Assembly (NCBI GenBank): GCA_964396095.1
Contig: CAYNCK010000088.1
Coordinates: 1-61,117, forward strand
DNA: 61,117 nucleotides
Direction of reading: 5' to 3'
From: an uncultured Methanosarcinales archaeon
GTDB lineage: Archaea > Nanobdellota > Nanobdellia > Woesearchaeales > GW2011-AR4
Shown: piece by piece, positions 39,594-58,534 of the stretch
How the letters are laid out: each line of letters opens with the position of its first letter
Position numbering within the stretch: position 1 is the stretch's first letter
Notes under the pieces: model-generated
Databases searched by the model: none
What the model saw: the letters and a program-made list of their open reading frames with translations, nothing else
Told to the model about the DNA's origin: nothing
Position numbers and translations under genes: made by a program

Positions 39594-40238
39594 ATGACAA
39601 ATTTAACCCATGAAGTGTGGAATTATCTTGATTCTGAGCCTAGCATTAGGAGGGAGCTTAACAGGGGCATTGTCAACACCATGGCTTTGGCAAAGCATAT
39701 TGTAAAAGCAAAAAACCTAAATAGCTCTGTTGATGCAGTCATCAGCTCAATAAGAAGATATGTAGCTGAACAAAGGCATGATCTCAAATTTCATAATGTT
39801 GAAAACATAATAAAATCATCAAGAATATCAACAAAAAACAAGATTGCTTTAATAGCAATGAAGCGAGATCCTATCATAATAGAGCTGTTGCCAAAGGTGT
39901 TTCCGCTGATAGAGCTGAACCGGGGAGATGTCATGAGGCTGTCCGAAGGAAAAGAGTCAATCAAGCTGCTTGTTGATGAAAAAAACGTCCAGAAGATAGT
40001 AAGCATTTTCCCTGAAAACAAGCTGATAGGGGTAACAAAAAACCTAAGCGAGCTTAGCATTCTTTTCGGACCAGGGGCGCCTGAGACTGTCGGAGTCCTT
40101 GCAACAATAATCAATGAGATTGCCGCAAACAACATCAACATTGTAGAGTCAATCGGCTGCATTCCGGAATACATGATTTTTGTTGACAACAAAGATATAT
40201 TGAAAGCGCATGAGATAATGATTAAGCTGTGCGGGTAA
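39594..40238 (+). CDS. Helical N-domain + ACT-domain protein (amino-acid-sensing regulator-like), paralogue 1
   Basis: GIVNTMALAKHI..SVDAVISSIRRY; C-terminal ACT (ETVGVLATIINEIAANNINIVE). Confidence 0.7.
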   Translation: MTNLTHEVWNYLDSEPSIRRELNRGIVNTMALAKHIVKAKNLNSSVDAVISSIRRYVAEQRHDLKFHNVENIIKSSRISTKNKIALIAMKRDPIIIELLPKVFPLIELNRGDVMRLSEGKESIKLLVDEKNVQKIVSIFPENKLIGVTKNLSELSILFGPGAPETVGVLATIINEIAANNINIVESIGCIPEYMIFVDNKDILKAHEIMIKLCG

Positions 40239-41973: not shown

Positions 41974-42217
41974 ATCTTTTACATAATATTTATAATTAAA
42001 GATTAATTCTAAATAATTATGCATGTACTGGTTTTTAGATCTTCCTAGCTTTTATTTTTTCAAACCCTTCAAACAATTTCTTAACATTTCCTTTTCCAAG
42101 CGCCAATATATAAGTTGCAAGCTTCTGACTCCTTTCCTTGTTCAAAATAAAACTTATAATGACTATTTAGTAGTTACTTTAGAAAGATTTATAAATAAAA
42201 TCCCATTAATCAAAATT

Positions 42218-42568
42218 ATGCCTACAGATGCAAATTTAAATTATCCTGCATTGTCTCTTGTGATAAGTCCTTATGAATATAAATCCACTGATAAAATACA
42301 GGGAGATTTAGAAAAAGTTATGCGATTATTAAGAAGTTCAGAACAGTTATTATATGAGGAAATCTCAAAAGACAAAGTTGAATCTGATTTAGCTGTTATG
42401 GTGAATAATCTTTGGGCATTACAAAGGAATTCAAGATACAATGGCGGCTTTCTTTTAACCGATGAGGGTTTGGAATATAGAAAAACATATATGGGAAGGC
42501 ATGGAATTGACATAATTTTCATGGGTGCTGATGGAAGTGTTGTTAAAATTGGCCTCCCAGATGAATAA
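42218..42568 (+). CDS. Hypothetical protein (116 aa)
   Basis: ATG 42218 after TATA-like TTTATAAATA; upstream ORF extension is AT-rich noise. Confidence 0.5.
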   Translation: MPTDANLNYPALSLVISPYEYKSTDKIQGDLEKVMRLLRSSEQLLYEEISKDKVESDLAVMVNNLWALQRNSRYNGGFLLTDEGLEYRKTYMGRHGIDIIFMGADGSVVKIGLPDE

Positions 42569-42577
42569 TTTAGCCAA

Positions 42578-44269
42578 TCAAACCCCTTCAAACAGTTTCG
42601 CAACTTTTTCTTTTCCAAGCGCTAGTATAAAAGGCGCAAGCTTTGGCCCTCTTTCTTTATTTAGTAAAACTTTGTAAGCTGCCTTGAACAAATCATTTGG
42701 CTCAATTTTTAATTCATCCTTGGCAATCCTGTAAAATTCGTTGAACAAAGTTTTCTCATCCCATTTTTCTTTCCTTAATTTTTCAGCAAGCAGATGGAGC
42801 GCTTTCTTCTGATGCTGGTTCAGCTCAATATTTTCAGGAATCTTGTGCTGGAATATGAATTTATACTGCTCATCGGCAAATTCTTTGACCCATCTCTTTG
42901 CGAATGCAAGCCTTTCCCCAACATAAACAATTTCTTCTTTTACAGCGTCTTCAGCAAGCTGGCCGGTTTCCCTCAGGGAATTCATAATCAGTTTTTCATC
43001 ATCAAAAATCTGCACTAAGATTGAAGCCTGTGAAAGGCTGACCTGAGGTGGAATTCTTTTAGGGATTTTTCCGACATGGCTTAATTCATAAATTCTTCTT
43101 TGCCTTGAATTTTCTTTTTCTCCAAGGTCATCTTTTCCAAAATAAACCCTTTCAGCCTGGTCGTATCTTTCATAAAGCAAAATCAAATCATTTGTGTAAG
43201 GGTCAAAATCAATTGCGGCATTTGGCCTTGTCCTTATGAGCATGAACCTCAGCATCTTTGCAGGCGCATAATTTACAGAATCTGCAAATCCAAGCCCCTG
43301 TCCTTTGGAAGTTGACATTTTCTTGCCGCCAACATTAAAAAATTCATATCCCGGGCCTGTTTCATAGCCGTTTGAAGGATAAGGCGGTGGGTAGTCAAAA
43401 ACATCAACTGCTATTCTGCATGCTGCAGTGCGTGATCCTCCTCTTGTGAAATGGTCTTTCCCAGCTGTTTCAACTATAACGCTATTTGTCGGCCATTTTG
43501 CAGCCCATTCGACTTTCCATGGAAATTTTCCATTGCCATCATAGGGGAAAATCCATCCTTTATGGCCGCACCCTTTTGCCCATTTCACAACATCGTTTCT
43601 GCATTCAAAAAATATTTTTTCATTTTTGCCGTCCCATTCAGTCGCAAGGGTTGTGGAAATTTTTTTGCAATGCGGGCAAAGGATATTGAAAGGAAGCTTG
43701 CTTGCCGCAGCGACATCATCACCGTACAAATCCCTGTAAATTTTTTGAATTCTGTCTGCGTAATCCAATGCAATTTTTATTGTCCTGTTGAAAGAGCCTT
43801 TTTCATATTCATGGCCTGTGCTTTCAAGGTGCGCTTCAATCCCAAAATCAGGAAATAATTCCGTGCATTGCGAAAAATAATAATCCCCAAAGCTTTTGTA
43901 GCCTTTTACAGGGCTTGGAATATACCTAAAGGGAACTCCGATGTATTTTTCGTTTTCTTTTTCAGTTAATTCTTTAGAAGGCTTGTCCAATGGATCCATG
44001 TCATCGCTGCTCAGGATGAATTTTGCTTTTACTCCTTTGTCGCGAAGGGCTTTCACAATTGCATCATGTATTACCCATCCCCTGCCTGAGCCTATATGTA
44101 TTGTTCCTGAAGGGGTTTTCTCGTCCATGACAATATAGCCGTGCTTTTTGACAAGGCTTTTCAGCAGCTCATTTCCCTCAACCCTTTTGATTGCCTCATC
44201 AGCAACCTGGTCTGCCCAAAATGAATCTTCGAAACTTTTACCGATAGGGCTTTTTTTATCCATAAACAC
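42578..44269 (-). CDS. lysK: Lysyl-tRNA synthetase class I
   Basis: WAD, TPSG.IHIGS, SDDMDPL, KFPWKVEWAAKW, GKDH, KMSTSKG, RGPKLAPFI. Confidence 0.95.
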   Translation of the reverse strand: MFMDKKSPIGKSFEDSFWADQVADEAIKRVEGNELLKSLVKKHGYIVMDEKTPSGTIHIGSGRGWVIHDAIVKALRDKGVKAKFILSSDDMDPLDKPSKELTEKENEKYIGVPFRYIPSPVKGYKSFGDYYFSQCTELFPDFGIEAHLESTGHEYEKGSFNRTIKIALDYADRIQKIYRDLYGDDVAAASKLPFNILCPHCKKISTTLATEWDGKNEKIFFECRNDVVKWAKGCGHKGWIFPYDGNGKFPWKVEWAAKWPTNSVIVETAGKDHFTRGGSRTAACRIAVDVFDYPPPYPSNGYETGPGYEFFNVGGKKMSTSKGQGLGFADSVNYAPAKMLRFMLIRTRPNAAIDFDPYTNDLILLYERYDQAERVYFGKDDLGEKENSRQRRIYELSHVGKIPKRIPPQVSLSQASILVQIFDDEKLIMNSLRETGQLAEDAVKEEIVYVGERLAFAKRWVKEFADEQYKFIFQHKIPENIELNQHQKKALHLLAEKLRKEKWDEKTLFNEFYRIAKDELKIEPNDLFKAAYKVLLNKERGPKLAPFILALGKEKVAKLFEGV

Positions 44270-44314: not shown

Positions 44315-45814
44315 TTATCTCAATTCTGCTTTTGTAAACGGAAATAATATGACTTCCTTGATTGATTTTTGGTCTGTCAGAATCATTGTAAGCCTGTCAA
44401 TTCCGATTCCAAGTCCTCCTGTGGGGGGCATGCCGTATTCTAAAGCCCTTAGGAAATTTTCATCCAGCCTCAGATGCGGATTATTTTGGCCTTCTCTTCT
44501 GATTTGCTCTTCAAAAAGCTTTCTCTGTAGAATTGGATCGTTCAGTTCTGTGTAAGCATTTCCAATTTCCATTCCGGCAATGTAAGGCTCAAATCTTTCT
44601 GCGAGTCCGGGTTTTTCCCTGTGCGGCTTGCATAACGGGGTTGACTCAATTGGGTGGTCTGTGATAAATACTGGACCATCCAAATGCGGTTCGACATAAG
44701 TTCCAAATAATCCAAGAACAATTTCGCCTTTAGACATATCCCTATAATCACCAATTTTTTCTTCTGATCTGGCAGCAAGATGAGTTTTTAATTCCAGCTG
44801 GTTCATCTTCTCAACATCTGTTCCGGTATATTGTTTTACAGCATCATACATTGTTAATCTTTGCCAGGGCGTCCTCAATTCAATTTCTTTCCCTTGGTAA
44901 TTTATTTTGGTTTTTCCAGTAATAATTATGGCAATTGCGGATATCATTTCTTCTGTCAGTTCCATAACTTTATGGTAGTCGCAATTTGACATGTAAGCTT
45001 CCATCATCGTGAATTCAGGATTGTGGGTGCTGTCAATCCCTTCATTCCTGAAATTCTTGCCAATAGTATAAACTCCCTGAAATCCGCCTACAATCAGTTT
45101 TTTAAGGTAAAGTTCAGGAGAAATTGAAAGGAAATGTTCCTGGTTTAGGGAATTAACATGTGTTATAAATGGAGCCGCTGATGCACCGCCGTAAATAGGC
45201 TGAAGAGTTGGAATTTCGACTTCCATATATCCTTTGCCATCCAAAAATTTTCTCATTTGAGAAATTATTTTTGACCTTTTCATGAAAATTTCAGCAACTT
45301 CGGGGTTTGCAATCAAGTCAAGGAATCTTTGTGAATATCTTATTTCTGGATCAACTAATCCGTGGTGCTTATCGGGCAGCGGCCTTAGTGATTTTGAAAG
45401 CATCGCGAAATCGCGGACATTCATTGAAAACTCGCCTGCTCTTGTATTGAAAGTTGTTCCTTCCGCACCCATAAAATCTCCAATATCAAAAAAATCCTTA
45501 AGAAGAGAATACACATCTTCTCCTAATTGCCTTTGGTTCAAATAAAGTTGTATGGTTTGCCCCCCTTCCCGTAAATCAAGAAATGTAGTTTTTCCATGCC
45601 CCCTCCATGCAACTATCCTTCCGGCAATCTTTGCTTCCAGTCCAATTTGGCTTTTACCAATCAATTCCGGAATTCTGTCTTTAGCATCGTAAAAATGCGG
45701 ATACGGGTCTATGCCCATTCGTCTCAATTCTTCAAGTTTTCGCAGTCTTACTGGGTCAATTCCTGCGTTTGAATCCGTATTTTGCACTCTGTTCTCGAGA
45801 ACTTCGTCTGACAT
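44315..45814 (-). CDS. lysS: Lysyl-tRNA synthetase class II
   Basis: OB fold (AGRI..RGHGK..FLDL), YSQRFLDL, GGASAAPF, SPELYLK, FRNEGID.THNPEFT, GNAYTELNDP, MPPTGGLGIGIDRL. Confidence 0.96.
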   Translation of the reverse strand: MSDEVLENRVQNTDSNAGIDPVRLRKLEELRRMGIDPYPHFYDAKDRIPELIGKSQIGLEAKIAGRIVAWRGHGKTTFLDLREGGQTIQLYLNQRQLGEDVYSLLKDFFDIGDFMGAEGTTFNTRAGEFSMNVRDFAMLSKSLRPLPDKHHGLVDPEIRYSQRFLDLIANPEVAEIFMKRSKIISQMRKFLDGKGYMEVEIPTLQPIYGGASAAPFITHVNSLNQEHFLSISPELYLKKLIVGGFQGVYTIGKNFRNEGIDSTHNPEFTMMEAYMSNCDYHKVMELTEEMISAIAIIITGKTKINYQGKEIELRTPWQRLTMYDAVKQYTGTDVEKMNQLELKTHLAARSEEKIGDYRDMSKGEIVLGLFGTYVEPHLDGPVFITDHPIESTPLCKPHREKPGLAERFEPYIAGMEIGNAYTELNDPILQRKLFEEQIRREGQNNPHLRLDENFLRALEYGMPPTGGLGIGIDRLTMILTDQKSIKEVILFPFTKAELR

Positions 45815-46076
45815 TATTTTCAGTAAGATTACACCTTTTAAAAGTCTTTCCTTGTTCGGGACTATGTTAATTTGCTACTTTCAATATAACTTTAATTGTT
45901 AGGAATTTCCATAAAAGTTTAGTGTATTGGTTTTAAAAACCCATCCATTGCAAACGATGGGGAATTCCTAACATTAAATATACCCATCCCCTTTGGGCGG
46001 TTGGGATTTTTATTTCAATTTATACAAAAAAATTTTAATAAACTTTAAAAGCGGCGATACGTTCCCAGTATATACC

Positions 46077-47078
46077 ATGGATGAGCCTAAAATAAAGTTG
46101 GCTTACTTTACGTCGTTCAGGGAAATAATTGGCGACGAGCAGGTAAGCAAAATTGTTATTGACCCTGAAACCACTGTAAATTATGGCTACAGGTTGGGAA
46201 ACCTAGAAGCAATGGCTCTGGACATCCAGAAAGGTGAAAGTGATTTTGCAAAAACATTTGAGCTTGTTATGATTTTTTCTGATGATAATGCGCAAGAATT
46301 TCAGGAGTCTAAAGATTCGGTTCATAAATGGCCACTAGATATTAAATCGCCTGCAAAGCAAATTATTGGGATTGAAGTACCGGTTGACACGCTTGAAGAT
46401 TTGCTTGTGAGAGTTCCTTCAGAGCCGTGGAGAATAATTAAAGATCCCAATCAAAAGGCGCTTCAGAAAGCATTGTATGAGCAGCAATTTCTCAATGTTA
46501 TAAATGAACGCCAGGTTGATTTGGTATTTTCAGATAGTTATCGCCCGCTATTCAGCCCCAGAACTGTAAATGCAAATTTTGGACACATAGTAAATATACA
46601 TCCTGCGATTCTCAATAAAGAAAGCCCGTATAGGCTTCCGGGCATTACTCCAACCAGGGATGCTTTTACCAGACTAAACTACGGATATGTTATAGTTGAT
46701 GATAAAAAAGACCGCGATATTTGGCCAAAAGGGGAGGTAATAGAAGTCGAATATCAAGGAAAAGTGAGAGTGGCAGTCAAAGTTCCTCGGCACAATAAAA
46801 CCGGAGTCACAGTTCATGTAATTAACGAAAAAGTTGACGACGGGCCTATCATAATTGATGAAGTCCGTGAAATAAATGCGGCAGACACATATGAGCAAAT
46901 CAGGGAAGGCAATTACCAGCTAAAAATGGAGTTACTGCCAAAAGCTCTTATGCATTATGTTCAGTCATTTCGACTTGGTGGTGCAGATGTCAGCGATATG
47001 ATATTAGTAAGGAGAGAATCATTGCTCAGAAATGGACCGACACAAACACGTTACGGGCTTGCTCAAGGACCTAATTGA
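46077..47078 (+). CDS. Divergent 10-formyl-THF-dependent formyltransferase (PurN-like)
   Basis: IVNIHPAIL..LPG, TGVTVH.INEKVDDGPII retain Asn/His/Asp catalytic residues; start taken as ATG 46077. Confidence 0.7.
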   Translation: MDEPKIKLAYFTSFREIIGDEQVSKIVIDPETTVNYGYRLGNLEAMALDIQKGESDFAKTFELVMIFSDDNAQEFQESKDSVHKWPLDIKSPAKQIIGIEVPVDTLEDLLVRVPSEPWRIIKDPNQKALQKALYEQQFLNVINERQVDLVFSDSYRPLFSPRTVNANFGHIVNIHPAILNKESPYRLPGITPTRDAFTRLNYGYVIVDDKKDRDIWPKGEVIEVEYQGKVRVAVKVPRHNKTGVTVHVINEKVDDGPIIIDEVREINAADTYEQIREGNYQLKMELLPKALMHYVQSFRLGGADVSDMILVRRESLLRNGPTQTRYGLAQGPN

Positions 47079-48174
47079 AATTCCTTCTGTCTTTCCGAAT
47101 GAGGAAAACATCAGTAAATACTGCGCTGATTTCCTGAAAAATTCCGAATTTAAAGTTGAGCTTGTTGAAATAGGAAAAAACAGGCACAATGTTGTTGCCA
47201 CAAAAGGCAGTCAAAGAAAATCAATTCTTCTTTTTGGCCATCTTGATACCGTTCCTCCATATAATTATTCTAAAAATCCTTATCAAATGGAAACAAACGG
47301 CGATAAAATAACTGGTTTGGGCTCTTGGGACATGAAGTCTGGGCTTGCAATAATTCTTTCCTGCGCGTCAAAAATTCGTCCAAAAAATGTTGGTGTAAAA
47401 ATTGTTTTTAGCGCCGATGAGGAAAATAATTCCCTTGGAAGCCATGTAACCTACACAAGTGATTTTTTGAAAAATGTTTTATTGGCAGTTACCCCGGAAA
47501 TTATTGACAATGCGGATGAATCAAAAAATAAAAATGTAATTCTTCTCGGCAGAAGAGGGAGAATAGTATTTCGGTTAGAAGTAAAAGGGATTGCAGGGCA
47601 CGGTGCATCTTTAAAGGGAGTAAGTGCAATCTCAGTTGCTTCGGAAATTGTGCAATATCTTGAGCAATTAAAATTCAAAAATCACGATTTCCTTGGCAAT
47701 ACGACACTTTTTGTAAGGAAAATTGAAGGAACATCAACATCGCTTTCATTGCCTGAAAAATGCGAAATATTATTGGACATCCATTATGTTCCGCCTTATA
47801 ATGAAAATTCACTTCTTGCGGAAATTGAAAGTGCATTAATACAACAATTTTCAATTTATACTGCCAAAGGCGTAAAAATATCACTGGAAATTCAAAAAAG
47901 AAACACCCCTTACCTAAAGCCGTACATAACTGACAAAAATAATCTTTACGTGAAAAAATTCATAAGCCTTTTGTCAAATAAAATCAAAAGCCTTAGAATT
48001 TCAGCGGGCCAAACCGTAGCAGATGAAAATATTGTTGGCAGTTTTGGCGTTCCTGTTGTAACTATGGGGCCAATTGGAGGCGAAGCCCATAGCTTAAATG
48101 AATGGGTTTCAAAAAAAAGCATCATAGAAATTGAAAAAATATATGTTGATGCTGTTCAGGAAATGGTAAAATGA
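47032..48174 (+). CDS. M20 metallo-amidohydrolase (DapE/ArgE-like)
   Basis: GHLDTVP, GLGSWDMKSG, ADEE, GRRG, VKGIAGHG, GEAHSLNEWV. Confidence 0.85.
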   Translation: MDRHKHVTGLLKDLIEIPSVFPNEENISKYCADFLKNSEFKVELVEIGKNRHNVVATKGSQRKSILLFGHLDTVPPYNYSKNPYQMETNGDKITGLGSWDMKSGLAIILSCASKIRPKNVGVKIVFSADEENNSLGSHVTYTSDFLKNVLLAVTPEIIDNADESKNKNVILLGRRGRIVFRLEVKGIAGHGASLKGVSAISVASEIVQYLEQLKFKNHDFLGNTTLFVRKIEGTSTSLSLPEKCEILLDIHYVPPYNENSLLAEIESALIQQFSIYTAKGVKISLEIQKRNTPYLKPYITDKNNLYVKKFISLLSNKIKSLRISAGQTVADENIVGSFGVPVVTMGPIGGEAHSLNEWVSKKSIIEIEKIYVDAVQEMVK

Positions 48175-48251: not shown

Positions 48252-49616
48252 ATGCCAGAATCATATTTAAAACCAGGATTGGTTGTCCTCGGAATTGGAA
48301 CTGTTGGTGGATCAGTATTGTACCAGCTTATCCACGACAATAAACTTTCTAGTTTTGAAAGCGTTGATGTCGGAGACTCAAGACATATACTCCATGGGTT
48401 AACTACCGAGAGGGATTTAAATTCTATTCTTGAAGCAAAGGCATGTCATCAGCATCTTGATACAATTGATTCTTTAAGAGGGCGCCTGGACAGCATAAAA
48501 AATCTTCCTAAATATTTTAAACGAAATGGCATTGTAATCAATGCGTTGCCGACTTATTTTCCGAATCCCGGTGATTTGCAAGAGCAGGAGCATGACAGCA
48601 TTGTATATGTTAAGCAGGCTCTATTGGGCGGAGCACATGTCATTAATGCAACCAAATCACAATTTGGAGACCAAGAAAAGCACGATGGCATTATGGATGC
48701 CGCATTTTTAGGAGGGGCTCGCCATTACCCGACTGGAGCATTTATGGGCCCTGCTAAAGTTGCGGAATTGCTGCAAGAGATTATCGGCAGTGGTTCAAAA
48801 ATTAAAAGTGCGGTTGGTGTTGTAAACGGAACTACAAATTTCATGCTAACTGAAATGATATATAATGGCCTGGATTATAATTCTGCTTTGGATATGGCCC
48901 GTTCATTGGGACTTGCCGACGGTGATGGTAAAGCCGATACACATGGCCATGACCCCCTCAGCAAGATTAGGGTTCCTGCAATTCTTTCTAGAAACTATGT
49001 TTCAAGTCCTCAAGAATTATATGGATTAAATGACGAAAGTAAAAGCGGATTAACTCATCCACATTTCGAATTGTTACAAGGAGAAAAAATATTAGGTATT
49101 GAAGGAGTCACAAATAGCCTTTTAGAAGCATTAGGGAAAATGTCCAAGACACTAAAACTAGTTGGCTCGTATAATGGTCAAACAGGCCATGTTGAGGTTG
49201 GGCCAAGAGTATTGTCTCTTGATCATCCTCTCGCTAATTTGAAAGGTACTGAAAATATGGCAATTTTTAATTTGGAGGGAAGAATAGATATGTTGGGTAT
49301 ATTGATGTCAGTTTTTCCAGAACCCACAATTGAAAAATTGAACGGAGATGGCATAGAAAGATACAGGATTGAAAATGGTTTTCATATGCCAGGAAATAAT
49401 TCACACTCAAAAAGAGATAGATATACAATTCATCTTAGCTACGACCCAAAAGAAAACGTGTTTACTGTAAGGGCACCGGGAGCTGGAAATGGCCACACAG
49501 CACACGCATTATTGGAAACTGCCGAGGGAATCGGAAGGAATGAATATGCAATAATTCGTCAAGCACGACAAGCTGCAAAAGAATCACGAAAAAATCCTCA
49601 AGACGCTATGCCGTAA
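48252..49616 (+). CDS. Divergent homoserine dehydrogenase-like protein
   Basis: LGIGTVGG Rossmann motif, GVVNGTTNFMLTEM, A..LGLAD...ADTHGHDPLSK, GAG. Confidence 0.7.
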   Translation: MPESYLKPGLVVLGIGTVGGSVLYQLIHDNKLSSFESVDVGDSRHILHGLTTERDLNSILEAKACHQHLDTIDSLRGRLDSIKNLPKYFKRNGIVINALPTYFPNPGDLQEQEHDSIVYVKQALLGGAHVINATKSQFGDQEKHDGIMDAAFLGGARHYPTGAFMGPAKVAELLQEIIGSGSKIKSAVGVVNGTTNFMLTEMIYNGLDYNSALDMARSLGLADGDGKADTHGHDPLSKIRVPAILSRNYVSSPQELYGLNDESKSGLTHPHFELLQGEKILGIEGVTNSLLEALGKMSKTLKLVGSYNGQTGHVEVGPRVLSLDHPLANLKGTENMAIFNLEGRIDMLGILMSVFPEPTIEKLNGDGIERYRIENGFHMPGNNSHSKRDRYTIHLSYDPKENVFTVRAPGAGNGHTAHALLETAEGIGRNEYAIIRQARQAAKESRKNPQDAMP

Positions 49617-49618: not shown

Positions 49619-50695
49619 CTACAAATACCCTTTCGCTTTCAGTAATTCTGCAGTTAGAATCGCTCCGCCTGCAGCGCCTCTTATTGTGTTGTGCGACAGT
49701 GCAATGAATTTCCATCCTAATACATTATCTTTTCTTAATCTTCCAACTGAAATGCCCATTCCCTTTTCAAAATTCCCGTCAAGCTTTGTCTGAGGCCTGT
49801 CTTCTTCATTAAAGTATTTCATGAACTGCTTTGGAGCGGAAGGCAATTTTAAACCTGCAATAGGATTTTTGTAATTATTGATTGCATTAATAAAATCTTT
49901 TTCACTTATATTTTTTGAAAGCTTAATTTCAACGCTTGCCATATGCCCGTCTGCAACAGGCACTCTTATGCATGTCGCTGAAATTGCTGGCTTTGTTGCA
50001 AGTTTTATTCCATTATTATCCACTCTTCCAAGTATTTTCATTGGCTCATTTTCTGATTTTTCCTCTTCATTGCTTATGAAAGGCACCACATTGCCAATGA
50101 TTTCAGGATAATTTTCAAAAGTTTTTCCTGCGCCTGAAATGGCCTGCAAAGTAGTTACAATAACATCCAGAGGCTTATATTTTTCAAGCGCTTTTATAAC
50201 GGGCACATAAGACTGAATTGAGCAGTTCGGCTTTACTGCTATGAATCCTTTTTTCCAGCCCCTGTTTTTCTTCTGCAAATCTATAAGGCGGATATGTTCA
50301 GGATTAATTTCAGGCATCATCATTGGGACATCTTTTGTCCACCTGTGCGCTGAATTGGTTGAGACAACAGGAATCCCTTTTGATGCATAAGCCTCCTCGA
50401 TTTTTATTATTTTTTCCTTATCCAAATCAAGTGCAGAGAATACAAAATCAGCTTCTTTGCATATTTCATTAATGTCTTCTTCCACTCTTTTTACAATGAG
50501 ATTTTTGGAAAAATCGGGAATTTTTGGTTCTATCTTCCATCTTCCTTTGACTGCACCCCCATATCTTTTGCCAGAAGAATTTGGCGATGCCGCTAAGCAT
50601 GTCACTTCAAACCACGGATGATTGTCAAGCAGTGAAACAAATCTCTGCCCCACCATTCCAGTTGCGCCCAGTATGCCTACTTTTATCTTCTTCAT
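49619..50695 (-). CDS. asd: Aspartate-semialdehyde dehydrogenase
   Basis: ILGATGMVGQRF, KPNCSIQ, QAISGAG, ATCIRVPV..GH, SHNTIRGAAGG. Confidence 0.96.
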   Translation of the reverse strand: MKKIKVGILGATGMVGQRFVSLLDNHPWFEVTCLAASPNSSGKRYGGAVKGRWKIEPKIPDFSKNLIVKRVEEDINEICKEADFVFSALDLDKEKIIKIEEAYASKGIPVVSTNSAHRWTKDVPMMMPEINPEHIRLIDLQKKNRGWKKGFIAVKPNCSIQSYVPVIKALEKYKPLDVIVTTLQAISGAGKTFENYPEIIGNVVPFISNEEEKSENEPMKILGRVDNNGIKLATKPAISATCIRVPVADGHMASVEIKLSKNISEKDFINAINNYKNPIAGLKLPSAPKQFMKYFNEEDRPQTKLDGNFEKGMGISVGRLRKDNVLGWKFIALSHNTIRGAAGGAILTAELLKAKGYL

Positions 50696-50700
50696 TTTGT

Positions 50701-52005
50701 TTACCCGAAAAACTCCTTATGAAGGCACCGAACAGCTTTTTCAGCGTCTTTTCCTTCAACAATGAATGTGATGTTTATTGCAGATGCCCCTTGTGAAATC
50801 ATTTCAACATTTATATTATTGCTTCCAAGCACAGTGAATACCTTTCCTGCAATCCCTTTAACAGCTTTCATCCCCTCTCCGACAGCGCATATTATTGCCT
50901 TGTTTTTTTCAATCTGAATTGCCCCTATATCTTCAAGTTCAGCTATAATTGTTTTGAGCCCGTCATCATTGTCCACTGTAAGTGAAACGCTGACCTCGGA
51001 TGTTGCAACCACATCAACGCTTTTTTTGTAGTCGTCGAATGTGTCAAATACCCTTGCCAGGAATCCATAGGCTCCAAGCATTCTTGTGGATTCTACATTT
51101 ATCAGTGTAATGTTTTTCTTGCAGGCAATTGCTTTTATTACACTTGTTCTTTTTTCAATAGCCTTGTAAATAGTTGTCCCCTCATTGCCGGGCTCAAACG
51201 AGTTCAACACTTTTACAGGTATTTTTTTCTCCATTGCAGGCAGTAATGTCTTTGGGTGCAGGACCTTCGCTCCAAAGTATGCAAGCTCTGACGCCTCTGC
51301 AAAAGACACCCTTTTCATTGTACTGGCATTTGGGACAATTTTTGGGTCAGTTGACATTATTCCGTTAACATCTGTCCAGATTTCAATCTCATCTGCATCA
51401 ATGGCAGCGCCGACAATTGCTGCAGTGTAATCAGAGCCTCCCCTTCCGAGAGTTGTAATATCTCCATTTTCTGACTTTGCAATGAATCCGGTTATTACAG
51501 GAACAATCTTTAGTTTTTTGATATTTTTTTTAAGATTATAATAAGCGGCGTCGAGCGGCTCTGCATTTCCGAATTCAGAGTCTGTAAAAAATCCAAGTTC
51601 CCACGAGTCAAAGCTCTTTGATTTTATCCCGATTTTATTGAGCTGCGCTGCAACAATCCTCGATGACAGTCTCTCTCCAAAAGACTGAAAATGATCCAGA
51701 ATTTTGCCGTCAGGATTATTATTTTTTGCATTGCTGAACAATGATTTTAATTCTTCAATATTTTCGTCCAAAAGCGTTTCTTCTAAATCGAGCTCTTCAA
51801 TTATTTGCTTGTGTGTTTTTATTATATGCTTCAAAATCTTTTCATCTTTTTCTTTTGCCAGCTTTATCAGCGCATCTGTCATTTTTGAGACTGCAGAAAC
51901 CACAACAACTGGCTTTTTCTTAATCCTTGACTTAATAATTTGAGCAGCGTTCTTTATCCTTTCGGCATTTCCTAAAGAAGTGCCGCCAAATTTCATTACT
52001 ATCAT
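50701..52005 (-). CDS. lysC: Aspartate kinase
   Basis: MKFGGTS, SFGERLSS, TTLGRGGSDYTA, WTDVNG, GAKVLHP, two ACT domains. Confidence 0.96.
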   Translation of the reverse strand: MIVMKFGGTSLGNAERIKNAAQIIKSRIKKKPVVVVSAVSKMTDALIKLAKEKDEKILKHIIKTHKQIIEELDLEETLLDENIEELKSLFSNAKNNNPDGKILDHFQSFGERLSSRIVAAQLNKIGIKSKSFDSWELGFFTDSEFGNAEPLDAAYYNLKKNIKKLKIVPVITGFIAKSENGDITTLGRGGSDYTAAIVGAAIDADEIEIWTDVNGIMSTDPKIVPNASTMKRVSFAEASELAYFGAKVLHPKTLLPAMEKKIPVKVLNSFEPGNEGTTIYKAIEKRTSVIKAIACKKNITLINVESTRMLGAYGFLARVFDTFDDYKKSVDVVATSEVSVSLTVDNDDGLKTIIAELEDIGAIQIEKNKAIICAVGEGMKAVKGIAGKVFTVLGSNNINVEMISQGASAINITFIVEGKDAEKAVRCLHKEFFG

Positions 52006-53177
52006 TTCAAATGCCCCCTTATCCTGTCTGCCGCTTTTTTTGTTTCTTCAATTGTTGGAACTAATGCAAACCTGACGTATTTTTCACCAGGGTTAAATCC
52101 TTTGGAGTTGTTTGAAATCCATGAGCCGGGGGTTACAACTATCGCAATATTCTTTTGCAATAATTTTTTTGCAAAGCTTACAGAATCGTATTTTTTTGGC
52201 ACTCTTTGCCAGATGTATATGGTCGCATCTGGAGTGCAGTCTTCCATTCCAACTGATGTAAATGCATCAACCAAAATGTCTCTCTTCTTTTTGTAGCCAC
52301 TCCTCATTTTTTCAACATGTTTTTCATCATTCAATGCGGAAATTGCGGCATCCTGTATGAATGTTGGAGTGCCTGAATCTATATTTGTCTTCAATTTCCT
52401 GAAAGCGGAGATTATATTACCATCGCCTGCAATCCATCCTATTCTGTAGCCGGTCATCGCGCTTCTTTTTGACAAAGACTGGAATGCAACAGTTCCTTCT
52501 TTTGAAAATTCAAGTATTGAATGGGGCTTTTCGCCGAAATAAATTTCAGTATAGCACTCATCGCTTGCAATAATTATGTTATTGTCATGCCCGAAGTCAA
52601 CAGCTTGCTTAAAAAATTTCCTTGCTGCAACAGCTCCAGTAGGATTATTTGGATAATTAATCCACAATATCTTTGATTTTTTCACGACATCTTTCGGGAT
52701 GCTTTCTAAATCCATCAAAAAATTATTTTCCTTCAAAAGAGGAACAAAATAAGGATTTCCTTCTGCAAACAAAGTGCCCCTTTCATAAGGCGGGTAGCCG
52801 GGATTTGGCATTATTGCATAATCACCTCGATTCAGGAATGCTTCTGGAAAATTAAATACAGCTTCCTTTGCGCCTATTGTTGAGGTTATTTCCTTCCCAA
52901 AATCAAGATTAACATTAAACCTTTTTTTGCACCATCTTGAAATTTCATTCCTGTATTCTTCTGTGCCGGCATTGCTCGGATACCCTGAGCTTTTTCTTGC
53001 ATCAACGGCTTTTTTTATCTCATTCCTTACAACTTCGGGGGTGGGCTCTTTTGGATCGCCAACTCCAAAATCAATCGGAGTTATCCCTAGATTTTTAAGT
53101 TTGGAAACTTCATCGTCCACTTCCGCAAAAGCATAGCCGCCAATGCTACCCAGCCTTTTTGATATTTGAATTTTCAT
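52002..53177 (-). CDS. PLP-dependent DAP-pathway aminotransferase (DapL/DapC type)
   Basis: FGVGDP, INYPNNPTG, SDECY, SLSKRSAMTGYRIG; inside dap operon; start taken as ATG 53177. Confidence 0.85.
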   Translation of the reverse strand: MKIQISKRLGSIGGYAFAEVDDEVSKLKNLGITPIDFGVGDPKEPTPEVVRNEIKKAVDARKSSGYPSNAGTEEYRNEISRWCKKRFNVNLDFGKEITSTIGAKEAVFNFPEAFLNRGDYAIMPNPGYPPYERGTLFAEGNPYFVPLLKENNFLMDLESIPKDVVKKSKILWINYPNNPTGAVAARKFFKQAVDFGHDNNIIIASDECYTEIYFGEKPHSILEFSKEGTVAFQSLSKRSAMTGYRIGWIAGDGNIISAFRKLKTNIDSGTPTFIQDAAISALNDEKHVEKMRSGYKKKRDILVDAFTSVGMEDCTPDATIYIWQRVPKKYDSVSFAKKLLQKNIAIVVTPGSWISNNSKGFNPGEKYVRFALVPTIEETKKAADRIRGHLK

Positions 53178-53181
53178 TTTC

Positions 53182-54444
53182 TTATTTGAATTGTTTTGCA
53201 CTTTTGAAATCAAGCGTTGCAAAATAATCGGCAACGGTTTCGGCTCTTCTGATTTGCAAAATGCTTCCATCTTTCCTCAGTAAAAGCTCCGAGCTTCTTA
53301 ACTTTCCGTTGTAGTTGAATCCCATTGCAAATCCATGTGCACCGGTATCATGAATTACCAATACATCTCCCGGCACAACTTCAGGAAGACTCCGGTTTAT
53401 GGCAAACTTGTCATTGTTCTCGCACAAAGAGCCCGTTACATCATAAACGTGGTTTTTTGGCACGTTTTCTTTTCCAAGCACGGTTATGTGATGGTAAGCT
53501 CCGTACATTGCCGGCCTCATTAAATTGGCCATGCAGGCATCAGTTCCTACATAATCCTTGTAAATACGTTTAATATGATTTACTCTTGTTACTAGATAGC
53601 CATAAGGGCCCGTGATTACTCTTCCGCATTCAGTAAAAATTTTTACAGGATGCAAATTATTTTTTTTAATTATACTTTCGTAATGTTTTTTTATGCCATT
53701 GGCAATAATTGAATATGACATAGGACTCTCTTCTGGTTTCTGGGCTATTCCAAGCCCGCCTCCAAGATTTATGAATTCAACTTTGATTCCTGTTTTCTTG
53801 TAAACTTCAACTGCCAGCTCAAACATCATCTTTGCTGTCTCAATAAAATAATCCGCGCGAAGCTCGTTGGATACTATCATAGTATGCATTCCGAATCTTT
53901 TTGCGCCTTTTCTTTTTACAATTTCATACGATTTTAGCATCTGCTCTCTAGTCAATCCGTACTTTGCCTCTTCAGGCTTCCCAATAATCACATTGCCTTT
54001 TCTTGAAGGCCCGGGATTATATCTAAAGCAGATTAAGTCAGGAATTCCTGCAACTTTTTCAAGGAATTCTATATGGCTTATATCATCTAAATTAATGATT
54101 GCTCCAATCTTTCTTGCCTTTTTGAAATCCCCAGCAGGAGTGTCATTCGAGCTGAACATTATTTCTTCCCCTTTGAATCCAACCTTTTCAGCCATCTCAA
54201 GCTCTGCGTAGGAGCTGCAATCGACTCCAAACCCTTCCTGTTTCAAGATTTTCAAAATAAATGGATTTGGGCAGGCTTTGACGGCATAAAACTGCCTGAA
54301 ACCATTTAGTAATCCAAATTCCTTCAGGAATTGCCGTGCATTCTCCCTCATAGCCTCCTCGTCGTAAATATGAAACGGAGTTGGGTACCTTTTTATTATT
54401 TCAAGCATTTTTCGCTTGTTGAATGGTAATGTTTTTTGCGCCAT
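53182..54444 (-). CDS. lysA: Diaminopimelate decarboxylase
   Basis: FYAVKACPNP, GMH, INLGGG, ECGR, GSLCENND, DTGAHG..MGFNYN. Confidence 0.95.
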   Translation of the reverse strand: MAQKTLPFNKRKMLEIIKRYPTPFHIYDEEAMRENARQFLKEFGLLNGFRQFYAVKACPNPFILKILKQEGFGVDCSSYAELEMAEKVGFKGEEIMFSSNDTPAGDFKKARKIGAIINLDDISHIEFLEKVAGIPDLICFRYNPGPSRKGNVIIGKPEEAKYGLTREQMLKSYEIVKRKGAKRFGMHTMIVSNELRADYFIETAKMMFELAVEVYKKTGIKVEFINLGGGLGIAQKPEESPMSYSIIANGIKKHYESIIKKNNLHPVKIFTECGRVITGPYGYLVTRVNHIKRIYKDYVGTDACMANLMRPAMYGAYHHITVLGKENVPKNHVYDVTGSLCENNDKFAINRSLPEVVPGDVLVIHDTGAHGFAMGFNYNGKLRSSELLLRKDGSILQIRRAETVADYFATLDFKSAKQFK

Positions 54445-54677
54445 TTTGTTTATTATTTTATTTTCTTGTTTTTTAGTTATTGTTCAACTGCAAATTGATT
54501 TTGTTTGTTATTAATTTGGTTGTATAAGCATTTCCATTTTTTTGTATTTGATTTTTTGCTTATAATTTTGTTAAAGTTTTCATAAGTTATTGTCTTTCTA
54601 ACTTTTTGCCTGGGCATTTGAGCAACTCAATAAATATTTTAAAAAAAATTAATTATAAAAATATTCAAATCAAGAGC

Positions 54678-55565
54678 TTAAATTATCTTTAAGTCCGCCA
54701 AAATTTTCCTTAATTTTTTCCTGTTATTTGTTGCCATCTCGCACATAGGCAGCCTGTAAGACTCTTTTATCATTCCTTTCATCGCGAGAGCAGCCTTTAT
54801 AGGGATTGGGTTTGTCTCAATAAACAATCCCTTAAACAAAGGCAGCAGCTTATTATGCAGCTCTTCAGCTTTTGAAAAATTTTTTGCCGAACAATAGCTT
54901 GTAAGCTGCTTTATTTGAGCCGGGATTATGTTTCCTGCCACTGAAATCACGCCTTTTCCGCCAAGCTTCATTAAAGGAAATGTCATATTATCATCTCCTG
55001 AAAAAACATCAAATGATTTGGGCAATTTATTCAAAACATCTTTCATTTGTACTATATCTCCTGAAGCTTCCTTTACTCCGACAATATTAGAATGTCGTTT
55101 TGCCAGCCTGACCAATGTTGAGGTTTCTACATTAACTCCCGTCCTGCCTTTGATGTTGTAAACAATAACCGGCAGGTCAGCTGATTCAGCAACCGCGCTA
55201 AAATGCCTGAATAAGCCTTCCTGTGTTGGCTTATTATAATAAGGATTGACATGCAGTGTCGCATCTGCTCCTAACTCGGCAGCCATCTTTGTCAATTCAA
55301 CTGCATGTTTTGTGGAATTACTTCCGGCTCCAGCTATGACTTTGGTTCTTCCGTTAGCAGCGTCAATGACTGTCTTTACAACAATTTCATGCTCGTCACG
55401 CTCTAAAGTGGGGCTTTCACCTGTAGTGCCGCATGGAACAATTCCATCAATTTTATTTTTAATTTGAAATTCTACAAGTTTCTTCAATGATGCTATGTCA
55501 AGTTCGCCGGCCTCATCAAATGGCGTGACTATCGCTGTTATTGCTCCTTGAAACATTTTATTCAC
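54678..55565 (-). CDS. dapA: 4-hydroxy-tetrahydrodipicolinate synthase
   Basis: AIVTPF, CGTTGES, PYYNKP, YNIKGRTG, GVKEASG, SGDD, TNPIPIK. Confidence 0.97.
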   Translation of the reverse strand: MNKMFQGAITAIVTPFDEAGELDIASLKKLVEFQIKNKIDGIVPCGTTGESPTLERDEHEIVVKTVIDAANGRTKVIAGAGSNSTKHAVELTKMAAELGADATLHVNPYYNKPTQEGLFRHFSAVAESADLPVIVYNIKGRTGVNVETSTLVRLAKRHSNIVGVKEASGDIVQMKDVLNKLPKSFDVFSGDDNMTFPLMKLGGKGVISVAGNIIPAQIKQLTSYCSAKNFSKAEELHNKLLPLFKGLFIETNPIPIKAALAMKGMIKESYRLPMCEMATNNRKKLRKILADLKII

Positions 55566-56307
55566 CCATTATACTTTTCATCATGTCGTTTATTTCATAA
55601 AAACCTTTTTTTCTGTTTATCCACTGCGCAGCCATTATTGCGCCTAACGCAAAACCTTCCCTGCTTCTTGCAGTGTGCTTCAGCTCAATTGTGTCTGCAG
55701 CGCTGTCAAAACCAACAGCATGCGTTCCAGGAAATGAGCCTGCCCTTACAGATGCGATGTGCAGTTCATTTGGCTTGATTTTTCCGTCAATTCTGTCAAA
55801 TACAAGCTTGTTTTTTCTCTTGATATTTTTCATTAATATTTCCCCTATCGTCTTTGCTGTACCGCTTGGGCTGTCTAATTTTTTGCTGTGGTGCAGCTCA
55901 TAGCCGTAAATATCATAGTCATCTATTTTGTTTATTATTCTTGATGCATCCTCTAAGATTCTGAAAAAAACATTCACGCCTATTGAAAAATTTGATGCGT
56001 AAATAAATCCGATTCCGCTTTTTTTGACAATAGTTTTAACTTCACCAAGATTATCATACCATGCTGTTGTTCCCACCACAATATTTTTTTTGAATATTGA
56101 AATTTTTCTTATATTTTCAATTACAGCATCAGGGGCGCTGAAATCAATGCATACATCCGCATTTTTCATTGATTCAACATTAATCTCCCTGTGAGTAGCT
56201 CCACTTTCATTTGGATCGATTATTGACTTTACGTTTATGCCCTTGTCTATTGCAATCCTTTCAATCTCGCGCCCCATCTTCCCGTAGCCTATTATTGCAA
56301 TGTTCAT
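55558..56307 (-). CDS. dapB: 4-hydroxy-tetrahydrodipicolinate reductase
   Basis: GYGKMG, IDFS, VGTT, SNFSIGV, ELHHSKKLDSPSGTA, FALGA. Confidence 0.96.
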   Translation of the reverse strand: MNIAIIGYGKMGREIERIAIDKGINVKSIIDPNESGATHREINVESMKNADVCIDFSAPDAVIENIRKISIFKKNIVVGTTAWYDNLGEVKTIVKKSGIGFIYASNFSIGVNVFFRILEDASRIINKIDDYDIYGYELHHSKKLDSPSGTAKTIGEILMKNIKRKNKLVFDRIDGKIKPNELHIASVRAGSFPGTHAVGFDSAADTIELKHTARSREGFALGAIMAAQWINRKKGFYEINDMMKSIMGE

Positions 56308-56561: not shown

Positions 56562-57218
56562 ATGGTAACCATAAGCCATCTTGTAAAAAAAATAGTCAAA
56601 GGCCAGCCCTTTGTGGAGGAAGCATTAGGCAGCGGAATCATAAGCACAGCAAACCTAGCAGAGCAGATGCTGCCAAAAATAGAGCAGGAGCTTGGCAAGA
56701 AAGTCAAGCATGCGGCAATTGTCATGGCTTTGAGGAGATTTTCCGATGAGGTTTCAGGGCACAGAGTCAGGCCAAAAAAATTTGATTATTCCGGGGAAAT
56801 TTTGATGAAGACAAATATATGTGATTTCACGATTGTAAAATCCCAAAGCCTTCTTGCGAAATTGAAGACAATCTACAATCTGGTGAATTTTGAGAGGGGG
56901 GACACATTGAACGTAATTTTGGGCAACAATGAAGTCAGCATTATCATAAATGAAAAATATTCGCAAAAGCTTGTGCAATTCCTATTAGGAGAAAAAATAT
57001 CCAACAAAGAGCACGGGCTTGTTGCACTGACTATAATCTTTGCATCAGATGATTTCCTGCACACGCCCGGCATAATATTCAATGCAGTCAGGAAGCTAGC
57101 ATGGGACAATGTAAACATATACGAGATTGTCTCGACAATGACTGAATTAACCTTTATACTGAATAAAAAAGATTCAATGAAAGCTTATGAGGCATTGCAG
57201 GAGATGGTTGACAAATAA
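56562..57218 (+). CDS. Helical N-domain + ACT-domain protein, paralogue 2, divergent from the dap operon
   Basis: GIISTANLAEQM..AAIVMALRRF; ACT (HTPGIIFNAVRKLAWDNVNIYEIVST); similar to 39594-40238. Confidence 0.72.
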   Translation: MVTISHLVKKIVKGQPFVEEALGSGIISTANLAEQMLPKIEQELGKKVKHAAIVMALRRFSDEVSGHRVRPKKFDYSGEILMKTNICDFTIVKSQSLLAKLKTIYNLVNFERGDTLNVILGNNEVSIIINEKYSQKLVQFLLGEKISNKEHGLVALTIIFASDDFLHTPGIIFNAVRKLAWDNVNIYEIVSTMTELTFILNKKDSMKAYEALQEMVDK

Positions 57219-57234: not shown

Positions 57235-58362
57235 TTATTTTTTTGTATTATGATCTAACATTTCTCTTTTTGGAAGAAGCGACATTAAGTCTCTTCTTAC
57301 ATTTCTTGCAGTGATTTCAAGGCCTGCGCCGGGTGATTGAATAATATAGGGCGCATCGGCGGAATAAGTTTCAGAAGTAATTATAATTTTGTTCATAGTT
57401 CCTCTTAGTCTGCCAAGTTCGCTGTCCGACTGCACTTCCTTCAGGCTTACCTCGATTTTTGGCTTCTGGCTTCCAATGTCTATTGAAGCAACATACCTTA
57501 ATGTTTTTCCGCTTCTTTTTGCGGAAATCATCTTATTCGCAAATAATTTGTCCAGCTGCTTTGAAGCCTGCATAAAACTTTCTGCAGTTTCATTGTTAAA
57601 ATAGTCTAGAGGTATAAAAGGATTCACAACTGCATCTTTCATGCTCACATTAAAGCCAGCAGACCTTGCAAGCACAATAAGTTTTCTTGAAACATCCAAT
57701 CCATTCAAGTCATCTCTTGGATCCGGCTCAGTATATCCCTTTTGAAGCGCTTCCTGCAAAATTTCAGAAAACATTCTCCCATTTTCCAGCTCAGAAGTTA
57801 TATACCCTAGTGTCCCTGAAAAGCAACCTTCTATGTGGCGCAGATTGTCATTTAAATCCCCCAAATCCTGCAGAAAGGGTATTGCATCAGAGCCGGCCAT
57901 TACAGAGCATCTGTAGCCATATCTTCTTGGATTTTTGGTCAGGGTTTGAAATACATCATAAGGGGAGAAAGCTATCGGATTTTTGTTTGCAGTAACTATG
58001 CCATAAGGGGTGTCGTTGATGACTTTAAGATGCAACTGCATCATAGGCTCGTTGGCAGCAGTAACATCCACAAAGACAAGCGAGCTCGCTTCTTTTTCAG
58101 TTCCGATTTTGGCAATATCAATGAGTTTTTTCGGATTTGGGTAAAGTTCTGCGCCATTATAATCTCTTACAATAAAATTATGCATTTGGCTATTTTCCAA
58201 ACCATTTGCTGAATAAACAAAGTATTGGCTGGAGGCAAGCCCGACAATTCTTGTGGGGTTTGCATGAAGCTGGGAATTCATGTCCCTCTTTTCAACAATC
58301 TGCCTAACCAGAGAACGGCCCACTTTTCCAGTTGCCCCTATTATGAATATATCCTGAATCAT
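57235..58362 (-). CDS. hom: Homoserine dehydrogenase (ThrA/MetL-type domain, stand-alone)
   Basis: IIGATGKVG, FVDVTA, VTANK, IEGCFSGTLGYI, GYTEPDPRDDLNGLDV.RKL, PGAG; start taken as ATG 58362. Confidence 0.85.
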   Translation of the reverse strand: MIQDIFIIGATGKVGRSLVRQIVEKRDMNSQLHANPTRIVGLASSQYFVYSANGLENSQMHNFIVRDYNGAELYPNPKKLIDIAKIGTEKEASSLVFVDVTAANEPMMQLHLKVINDTPYGIVTANKNPIAFSPYDVFQTLTKNPRRYGYRCSVMAGSDAIPFLQDLGDLNDNLRHIEGCFSGTLGYITSELENGRMFSEILQEALQKGYTEPDPRDDLNGLDVSRKLIVLARSAGFNVSMKDAVVNPFIPLDYFNNETAESFMQASKQLDKLFANKMISAKRSGKTLRYVASIDIGSQKPKIEVSLKEVQSDSELGRLRGTMNKIIITSETYSADAPYIIQSPGAGLEITARNVRRDLMSLLPKREMLDHNTKK

Positions 58363-58370
58363 TGAAAGTG

Positions 58371-58534
58371 AATAAAATGTGCCCAATGTGATTTCCACCA
58401 ACTGTTCCGTCATGTCGGAAATCAGAGATTTCCGAGCACCATCGAAAATGCCAAGCATTTATCGAGGGTTGAGTGCGGAAACAAGTGCAATCTACCGATT
58501 GCACGGATAAATATAATGGGCCCAACGGGATTTC
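58371..58534 (-). repeat. Hairpin mini-element copy 2 (with 55-nt nested insert), flanked by a degenerate 25-bp repeat of the tRNA-Lys 3' end
   Basis: GAAATCCCGTTGGGCCCATTATATT (58534-58510) vs GAAATCACATTGGGCACATTTTATT (58395-58371), 21/25 identical; core matches copy 1. Confidence 0.8.

Follow-up and report, generated by a model that had tools for sequence, protein, structure and literature searches.

A formyltransferase-like gene overlaps an M20 amidohydrolase gene

The window, meaning the whole stretch of DNA analysed here (61,117 nucleotides), is contig C88 (CAYNCK010000088.1) of a 1.29-Mb Woesearchaeota (DPANN) genome (G000; assembly GCA_964396095.1) with a completeness of 85.8%. It carries a formyltransferase-like open reading frame (ORF), hereafter FT, whose 3' end overlaps a gene for a hydrolase of the M20 family, hereafter M20. 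Judged from the ORFs, these two genes and a homoserine dehydrogenase-like (Hom-like) gene lie in series on one strand, with the following features.

46077..47078, + strand: FT, a PvdF-like N-formyltransferase of the 10-formyltetrahydrofolate (10-formyl-THF) type (P0001), 333 amino acids (aa), assigned by Pfam, PDB profile, AlphaFold2 (AF2) fold and tree
47032..48174, + strand: M20 metallo-amidohydrolase of the ArgE/DapE/LysK type (P0002), 380 aa, assigned by Pfam, TIGR01910, PDB match and metal ligands
48252..49616, + strand: divergent homoserine dehydrogenase-like gene, 454 aa, third in the FT-M20 transcription unit (Pfam Homoserine_dh, 82 bits)
46044..46050, + strand: TATA-like box TTTAAAA of the FT-M20 operon, assigned by sequence, in a block that recurs at loci L009 and L042

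A preliminary description of this region, made from the DNA letters alone, had reported that FT overlaps M20 by 47 bp on the same strand and that the Hom-like gene follows, which is the arrangement found. The FT frame is open from 45993, offering an alternative start to the ATG at 46077. The ATG at 46077 is likely the true start, because TTTAAAA lies about 30 nt upstream of it and the promoter block is kept in related loci: a TTTAAAA-GyGGCG block also precedes the FT orthologues in L009 and L042. The spacing of about 30 nt between box and ATG suggests that the FT-M20 transcript would have a short leader or none.

FT belongs to the PvdF branch of formyltransferases

FT matched the Pfam Formyl_trans_N domain with 53.8 bits (cut-off 26.1) in two stretches separated by inserts, which amount to about 120 residues relative to PurN. 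The ORF encodes a real conserved protein, far beyond chance, because the family counts 51 cluster representatives at E ≤ 1e-30 and the AF2 model reached a pLDDT of 88.6 (pTM 0.88). Alignment of 20 family members revealed that N173, H175 and D254 are invariant; they align with N168, H170 and D229 of PvdF, which are experimentally important residues (PMC7926923). Beyond the folate core, S13, R15, E16, E21, R39, E44, D69, D70, W118, E135, D153 and S154 were also invariant in the 20 homologues. The first three belong to the segment T12-S13-F14-R15-E16, which follows strand 6-12 of the model and occupies the beta1-loop-alpha1 site of the G-x-G-S-N loop of PurN. In PurN this loop, located after beta1, binds the phosphate of glycinamide ribonucleotide (GAR). 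The retained N-x-H and D residues, the replacement of the GAR phosphate loop by TSFRE and the long insertions had all been noticed in the preliminary description, and the family alignment and the split Pfam match agree with each of them.

Fold comparison based on structure prediction, which the preliminary description had proposed as a check, placed PvdF ahead of PurN and PurU. With the FT model as the query, Foldseek returned PvdF of Pseudomonas aeruginosa (PDB 6CUL) as the best match (E 2e-15, TM 0.77-0.80), followed by PurN (E 3e-10), and PurU also ranked behind. A profile built from the FT alignment and compared with the PDB gave the same order, 6CUL being best over residues 1-278 (E 2.7e-25) and PurN second in two core pieces (6e-22), and a language-model feature look-up also returned clusters named PvdF. 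PvdF is an N10-formyl-THF:N5-hydroxyornithine formyltransferase. Besides the N/H/D triad and the full-length profile match, it has in common with FT an S-x-R at the site of the PurN phosphate loop, the DD, E and R-x-G-x3-T-x-D-A motifs and the extra elements on the GART core; the S-x-R, DD and R-x-G-x3-T-x-D-A motifs are invariant in the FT family. FT is thus a member of the PvdF branch, of which the loop replacement and the inserts are a hallmark, and TSFRE is the family counterpart of S-L-R-N in PvdF. The "remodelled" formyltransferase of the preliminary description is therefore real as to the remodelling, but it is a trait of an already described branch and not a local novelty.

The two proteins nevertheless differ in several respects. 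FT is just 22-24% identical to PvdF, it carries an extra beta insert of about 35 residues (G-x-IIVDDKK...) and a longer N-terminal insert, and Gly147 of PvdF is replaced by an invariant Ser in the FT family. FT has no hydroxylase or nonribosomal peptide synthetase (NRPS) partner; in their place it is linked with a zinc amidase and with lysine genes, and its family occurs in DPANN archaea and in bacteria of the candidate phyla radiation (CPR).

The curated models of other formyltransferases fit FT poorly. It scored 52.3 bits with TIGR00639 (PurN; cut-off 150.1), 38.9 bits with TIGR00655 (PurU; cut-off 286) and 18.5 bits with TIGR00460 (Fmt; cut-off 201.5), with neither the ACT domain of PurU nor a Formyl_trans_C match, and the models for ArnA and sugar formyltransferases also scored it far under their cut-offs. 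A canonical PurN is encoded elsewhere in the same genome, on contig C95 (185.9 bits with the PurN model). In a FastTree phylogeny of 172 rows, FT was found in a clade of 55 rows (support 99), apart from the PurN clade (support 100) that holds the C95 protein. The preliminary description had expected an acceptor other than GAR and had named clustering with PurN beforehand as the result that would speak against it; the scores, the separate PurN and the tree position all side with that expectation. FT thus shares the Formyl_trans_N fold and the catalytic triad with PurN and differs from it in the missing G-x-G-S-N loop, the inserts and the separate clade, and GAR is very unlikely to be its acceptor. 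Labels such as PurN or "phosphoribosylglycinamide formyltransferase" should be dropped for genes of this family. The genome encodes FolD, which allows 10-formyl-THF to be made.

M20 resembles hydrolases of N-acylated diamino acids

The M20 protein matched Pfam M20 and M20_dimer, the domain layout that is also found in LysK and ArgE, the hydrolases of N-alpha-acyl-lysine and N-alpha-acyl-ornithine. Residues H70, D100, E130/E131, E156 and H353, corresponding to the metal ligands and the catalytic Glu, were invariant in 29 M20 relatives, so that the di-zinc ligands and catalytic Glu of DapE are all present; the best PDB match was also a DapE (5VO3, E 8e-20). Reported contacts of DapE with succinate and diaminopimelate (DAP) involve R178, H194, Y197, R258 and T325 in Haemophilus influenzae numbering (PMC10809365). 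The equivalents of R178, H194 and T325 are kept in M20, and those of Y197 and R258 are Ser and His, respectively. No curated cut-off was reached (141.7 bits with TIGR01910, cut-off 217.6; 137.9 bits with the next model, cut-off 284). Among the relatives are proteins at 38% identity that NCBI annotates as [LysW]-lysine hydrolase; in Micrarchaeota, a separate LysK-like M20 is present alongside. By these residues and matches, M20 looks like an active N-acyl-amino-acid amidohydrolase. Complex prediction for FT and M20, with both proteins supplied as alignments, gave a score of 0.00, which carries no verdict either way on binding.

The coupling of FT to a zinc amidase is conserved

In every close FT relative an M20 gene overlaps or abuts FT, namely in the window, L006, L007, L009/L041, L042, L043 and the contig of P0013, with overlaps of 4-29 bp or abutting genes in the relatives. 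These FT proteins are 48-55% identical to that of the window, and the orthologous M20 proteins encoded after them 60-69%. The Micrarchaeota have M20 relatives at 41-46% identity, each preceded by an overlapping FT gene whose product is only 27% identical yet of the same family. Other Woesearchaeota encode an FT (40-44% identical, all motif residues kept) followed, often with an overlap, by an M23 metallopeptidase of 212-244 aa that lacks a signal peptide and retains its HxxxD and HxH motifs intact. The M20-linked FTs of Woesearchaeota group in a single clade of the tree (support 100), which is nested within M23-linked and bacterial sequences. The constant unit is a PvdF-like formyltransferase with a cytoplasmic zinc amidase, the type of which can be swapped.

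The neighbourhood conservation that the preliminary description had suggested examining thus confirmed that the coupling is real and kept in relatives. Two of its ideas stand in part. The pairing of FT with M20 is conserved, but a strictly back-to-back formylation and deformylation would be a futile cycle; and the Hom-like gene, which follows the pair here, is kept 3' of M20 in L009/L041 (38% identity) and adjoins the pair in some relatives but not in others.

Some loci of the family have other features. The M23 partner (L047, 8958-9662, and others) matched positions 365-574 of the NCBIfam models PRK06148/PRK06149 ("aminotransferase", about 1,000 residues) with 165 bits, which shows that M23 domains of this type also occur as parts of large multidomain enzymes. 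A CADD-family gene (folate-related, possibly a pABA synthase) follows FT-M23 in L046 (2968-3654). In the Solemya velum gill symbiont, an 807-aa protein of the ATP-grasp and Mur-ligase type, similar to cyanophycin synthetase, is encoded at 7475-9898 of L025, and a member of the FT family lies 16 bp downstream. Two FT loci of Saccharibacteria have a membrane-protein ORF upstream, and neither an M23 gene nor a leader rich in lysine codons was found in them.

FT-amidase pairs are found among lysine genes

A connection not seen in the preliminary description is that the FT-M20 pair of the window is surrounded by a lysine supercluster, with class I and class II lysyl-tRNA synthetases (LysRS) upstream and asd, lysC, an aminotransferase gene, lysA, dapA and dapB downstream. 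The supercluster also holds two ACT/DUF7523 genes and a second hom.

44315..45814, - strand: class II LysRS (LysRS2), divergent from FT and part of an inserted block (TIGR00499, 540 bits; cut-off 427.6)
49619..56307, - strand: core aspartate/DAP-lysine operon with asd, lysC, class I aminotransferase, lysA, dapA and dapB, assigned by model matches
52002-53270: the class I aminotransferase of the DAP operon
56562..57218, + strand: ACT/DUF7523 protein, 218 aa, with homologues divergent beside FT-M23 modules elsewhere
39594-40238: paralogue of the ACT/DUF7523 gene
57235-58458: second, ordinary Hom

All FT-M20 pairs of Woesearchaeota lie inside DAP-lysine clusters, in at least three arrangements, one of which is FT-M20-dapB-dapA on the contig of P0013. 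Those of Micrarchaeota adjoin a LysW-type cluster (LysX, LysW, LysY, LysZ, LysJ and LysK), and one of them (L057) is also near the folate genes SHMT, FolD and FolC. The LysW-type (aminoadipate) route is the other, unrelated pathway to lysine or ornithine, with a protecting group and a LysK of its own. A class II LysRS gene adjoins FT in 6 loci, being a divergent neighbour in five and coupled in L047, where the order is an Lrp-type regulator, a saccharopine dehydrogenase-like gene, LysRS2 (with a stop that overlaps the FT start), FT and M23. ACT/DUF7523 genes are found divergent before dapB in congeners and divergent before FT-M23 elsewhere, and in L008 a GNAT gene similar to AblB (beta-lysine N-acetyltransferase-like; 1386-2294) lies between FT and M23. 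Two aspartokinase genes, about 30% identical to each other, flank the module in the FT-M20 relatives L009/L041 (122-1224 and 7517-8868) and on the 11.5-kb contig of P0008.

FT-M23 was also detected in a Woesearchaeota genome (G338) in which no dapB, lysA or LysX was found, and the putative acceptor-site residues are invariant between the FT-M23 clade of this genome and the clade of the window. A "LysA-like" gene of G338 was considered as evidence of DAP salvage and rejected, as it lies beside the genes for spermidine synthase and deoxyhypusine synthase and is read as a polyamine decarboxylase.

The pair was gained with a class II LysRS in one genome of a genus that keeps the DAP operon

FT was found in none of 24 congeners and none of 300 genomes of the class, and a search of 40 genomes of relatives returned the window alone. 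The congeners had dapB in 11 of 24 cases, and the five congener clusters that were read keep ACT-dapB-dapA-lysA-aminotransferase-lysC-asd at 70-77% identity without FT or M20; the pathway is therefore maintained in the genus without the pair. Compared with the congeners, the window has one additional stretch of 5.3 kb, inserted between asd and the gene for the class I LysRS; it consists of LysRS2, FT, M20 and the Hom-like gene and is missing in all 24 sampled congeners. A true class II LysRS was likewise found in 0 of the 24. LysRS2, FT and M20 were thus gained together in this genome.

M20 of this type and DapF were missing in five good congeners: DapF (TIGR00652) was found neither in the genome of the window nor in G301, G305, G308, G314 and G315, which are 90-93% complete and keep dapA, dapB and lysA.

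The aminotransferase slot between lysA and lysC holds two types of enzyme that are about 28% identical (window, 52002-53270; L036, 12447-13745; L039, 12726-13895; L006, 7994-9208), and the type found there is independent of the presence of FT-M20. The enzyme of the window scored below the cut-offs of both the "direct" and the succinyl-DAP models and is not close to solved DapL, so it cannot decide between a formylated DAP branch and other explanations. In a genome of the same order (G337), a class II LysRS match on contig C74 (2104-3657) contained 14 in-frame TGA codons; this contig may follow a TGA-recoded code or may be contamination, which is listed at 6% for that genome.

A proposed accessory module for N-formylation and deacylation

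The fold and family of FT, the catalytic residues, the gene coupling, the neighbourhoods and the phyletic pattern are direct observations. What they suggest concerns the formyl donor, the class of acceptor, the substrate of M20 and the physiological role. We propose, as a reading about as likely as not, that FT and its amidase form an accessory module that N-formylates and deacylates lysine or a lysine-type diamino acid. FT would transfer the formyl group of 10-formyl-THF to the amino group of a free amino acid instead of GAR, and the acceptor would most likely be lysine, beta-lysine, DAP or a close precursor. M20, as an N-acyl-diamino-acid amidohydrolase of the ArgE/DapE/LysK type, would act in the same pathway by hydrolysing an N-acyl linkage, probably that of the formyl group. 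Co-translation of the genes means that the two reactions cannot just cancel each other; at least one step would lie between them, or else M20 would cut a different bond. A DAP-like substrate would reconcile the PvdF-like geometry, with an amino-acid anchor and a distal nitrogen, with the DapE-like one, with an N-alpha-acyl amino acid and a distal amino-acid end. The 5.3-kb block would have arrived in a pre-existing lysine cluster, and such an insertion implies that the module would supplement the handling or supply of lysine rather than provide the backbone of the pathway.

Several points weigh against this proposal. A transferase and a hydrolase that are co-expressed and undo each other's work would be futile. 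PvdF formylates a side-chain hydroxylamine and M20 enzymes of the DapE/ArgE/LysK type cleave N-alpha-acyl bonds, so the nitrogens concerned may differ. The association with lysine comprises about a dozen independent loci, all metagenomic, and gene neighbourhood is a correlative argument. The neighbours in bacteria also differ: the Solemya symbiont has a cyanophycin-synthetase-like gene at this place, Saccharibacteria have RimK, and no lysine gene is evident at these loci.

In a wider form, which we advance only tentatively, the module would represent an N-formyl amino-acid route for lysine supply common to DPANN and CPR, with the formyl group as a transient protecting or handle group. Such a route, and with it each of its forms, is equally tentative: it could add a formyl version, the fourth, to the acyl-DAP/aminoadipate pathways, or be a bypass of the missing DapF or a salvage of precursors or, more boldly, an fmt/def-like action on Lys-tRNA through the co-inherited LysRS2.

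To our knowledge, folate-dependent N-formylation of free amino acids has so far been known only for hydroxamate siderophores. The family described here is a deep PvdF-type branch outside any siderophore context, locked to a zinc amidase and repeatedly found among lysine genes in archaea and bacteria whose reduced genomes have room for few genes. If its acceptor is a compound of the lysine pathway, this would be a new acyl chemistry in the biosynthesis or salvage of amino acids, and it could help to explain the supply of lysine in DPANN and CPR organisms with apparently incomplete pathways (no DapD, DapE, DapF or Ddh). A literature search on tetrahydrodipicolinate or N-formyl-lysine formyltransferases yielded nothing relevant and no description of the module. 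The proposal is to be taken as a well-founded lead, not yet as a discovery. The fold and the chemistry are already known from the PvdF branch; the novelty lies in the clade (DPANN and CPR with some bacteria), in the obligatory partnership with an amidase and in the lysine context.

Alternative explanations for the FT-amidase pair

The pair could instead constitute a formyl-DAP branch, which we consider doubtful. FT would then replace DapD or DapH and act on ring-opened tetrahydrodipicolinate (L-2-amino-6-oxopimelate), the aminotransferase would produce N-formyl-LL-DAP and M20 would replace DapE. The gene content agrees with this scheme, as the genome has dapA, dapB and lysA, and Ddh, plant-type DapL, DapF and DapD/DapH were not found in it at the given completeness; its sole two hexapeptide proteins are CysE-like and sugar-acetyltransferase-like. 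DapE enzymes are the best characterised relatives of M20, the aminotransferase is nearer to the DapC/AspC type than to solved DapL, and FT, M20, dapB and dapA form a co-directional string on the contig of P0013. An N-acylating enzyme beside an M20 deacylase in a dapA-dapB-lysA cluster without the known bridging enzymes is also reminiscent of DapD/DapE and of DapH with N-acetyl-DAP deacetylase, and the dapD and dapE genes show the same acyltransferase/deacylase adjacency. FT is, however, a folate-type formyltransferase and not a hexapeptide acyl-CoA transferase, and the pair is dispensable in congeners. Their DAP operon is under clear constraint, judged from its 70-77% identity, in the absence of FT or such an M20; the congeners therefore have no need of the formyl branch, and their orthologous aminotransferase has to function in its absence. 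A rule by which an acylase and a deacylase are needed wherever a dapA-dapB-lysA pathway lacks DapL or Ddh does not hold in these congeners. FT-M20 furthermore accompanies the unrelated LysW pathway, and FT-M23 occurs in the genome without dapB, lysA or LysX found (G338), yet the putative acceptor-side residues are invariant across the clades. The Ser and His at the positions of Tyr197 and Arg258 of DapE also argue against a DapE-like role of M20.

It is unlikely, although compatible with part of the data, that FT makes a neutral N-formyl-lysine-type solute from surplus lysine, comparable to N-epsilon-acetyl-beta-lysine (made by AblB) or N-acetyl-lysine, from which the amidase would recover lysine. 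The PvdF-like geometry suits a side-chain amine, an AblB-like gene is a neighbour in L008, and the module stands beside lysine-producing clusters of both kinds, with extra aspartokinase copies in related loci. Two reports document N-acyl-lysine solutes (PMC1224877, PMC4685198). N-formyl solutes, however, are not known, and regulated accumulation is hard to square with a maker and a breaker that are translationally coupled; the coupling to LysRS2 would be left unexplained, and the module is also present in a genome in which no lysine synthesis was found.

The link to LysRS2 would be accounted for by a pair acting on lysyl-tRNA, in which LysRS2 charges tRNA-Lys, FT formylates Lys-tRNA and the amidase deformylates it. 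The FT-amidase pair recalls the def-fmt operon of bacteria, which also consists of a transferase and a metallohydrolase; LysRS2 adjoins FT in 6 loci, overlapping its start in L047, and the gain of FT and M20 in this genome came jointly with that of LysRS2. We nonetheless regard this as highly improbable, for FT lacks the C-terminal tRNA-binding domain of the Fmt type and scores 18.5 against the 201.5 of the Fmt model. In addition, many genomes of the same order have LysRS2 without FT, and the modules of Micrarchaeota and the P0013 contig have no LysRS neighbour.

Still less probable is a housekeeping one-carbon enzyme, either a divergent PurN or a PurU-like formyl-THF hydrolase regulated by a separate ACT protein. 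FT has the catalytic triad of PurN and PurU, ACT/DUF7523 genes adjoin FT-M23 modules, and folate genes or a CADD-like gene occur near the modules of L057 and L046. Nevertheless, a true PurN is present, and FT scores only about 52 bits with the PurN model (cut-off 150) and 39 bits with that of PurU (cut-off 286). The loop for the phosphate is replaced in FT, congeners without FT carry the ACT gene beside dapB just the same, and the coupled amidase would have no role.

A true PvdF function, that is the formylation of N5-hydroxyornithine or N6-hydroxylysine for a hydroxamate siderophore, is hardly credible even though PvdF is the closest characterised relative, as the identity to PvdF is so low, no match to Lys_Orn_oxgnase (Lys/Orn N-hydroxylase) was obtained in this 85.8% complete genome at E ≤ 0.001, no NRPS or siderophore gene was seen in the window or near related loci, and the host lineages are probably anaerobic.

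Repeats and a RimK-family ligase in the window

The intergenic region between LysRS2 and FT contains a predicted hairpin structure.

45899..45971, no strand assigned: 12-nt inverted repeat around a second hairpin in the LysRS2/FT intergenic region (fold with a minimum free energy of -27.5 kcal/mol)

The repeat unit is a perfect 12-nt inverted repeat (TTAGGAATTYCC). It was considered as a riboswitch or operator of the module and rejected, being missing from all related intergenic regions, with a motif that does not recur at other lysine genes. The LysRS2/FT intergenic regions of relatives are 88-131 nt long and without the repeat, and that of the window is twice as long. The repeat is probably an inserted mini-element outside the module proper.

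An 81-nt direct repeat is present at 42062-42142 and 42581-42661, with copies that are 78% identical. The latter copy constitutes the 3' terminus of the gene for the class I LysRS (lysK) and the former lies inside an ORF at 42023-42568; it may be a duplicated remnant of the end of lysK. Finally, a RimK-family alpha-L-glutamate ligase, which is also MptN- and LysX-like, is encoded at 32421-33494 (187.7 bits; cut-off 143.4) and is conserved in this genome, in congeners and in the FT-M23 genome G338.

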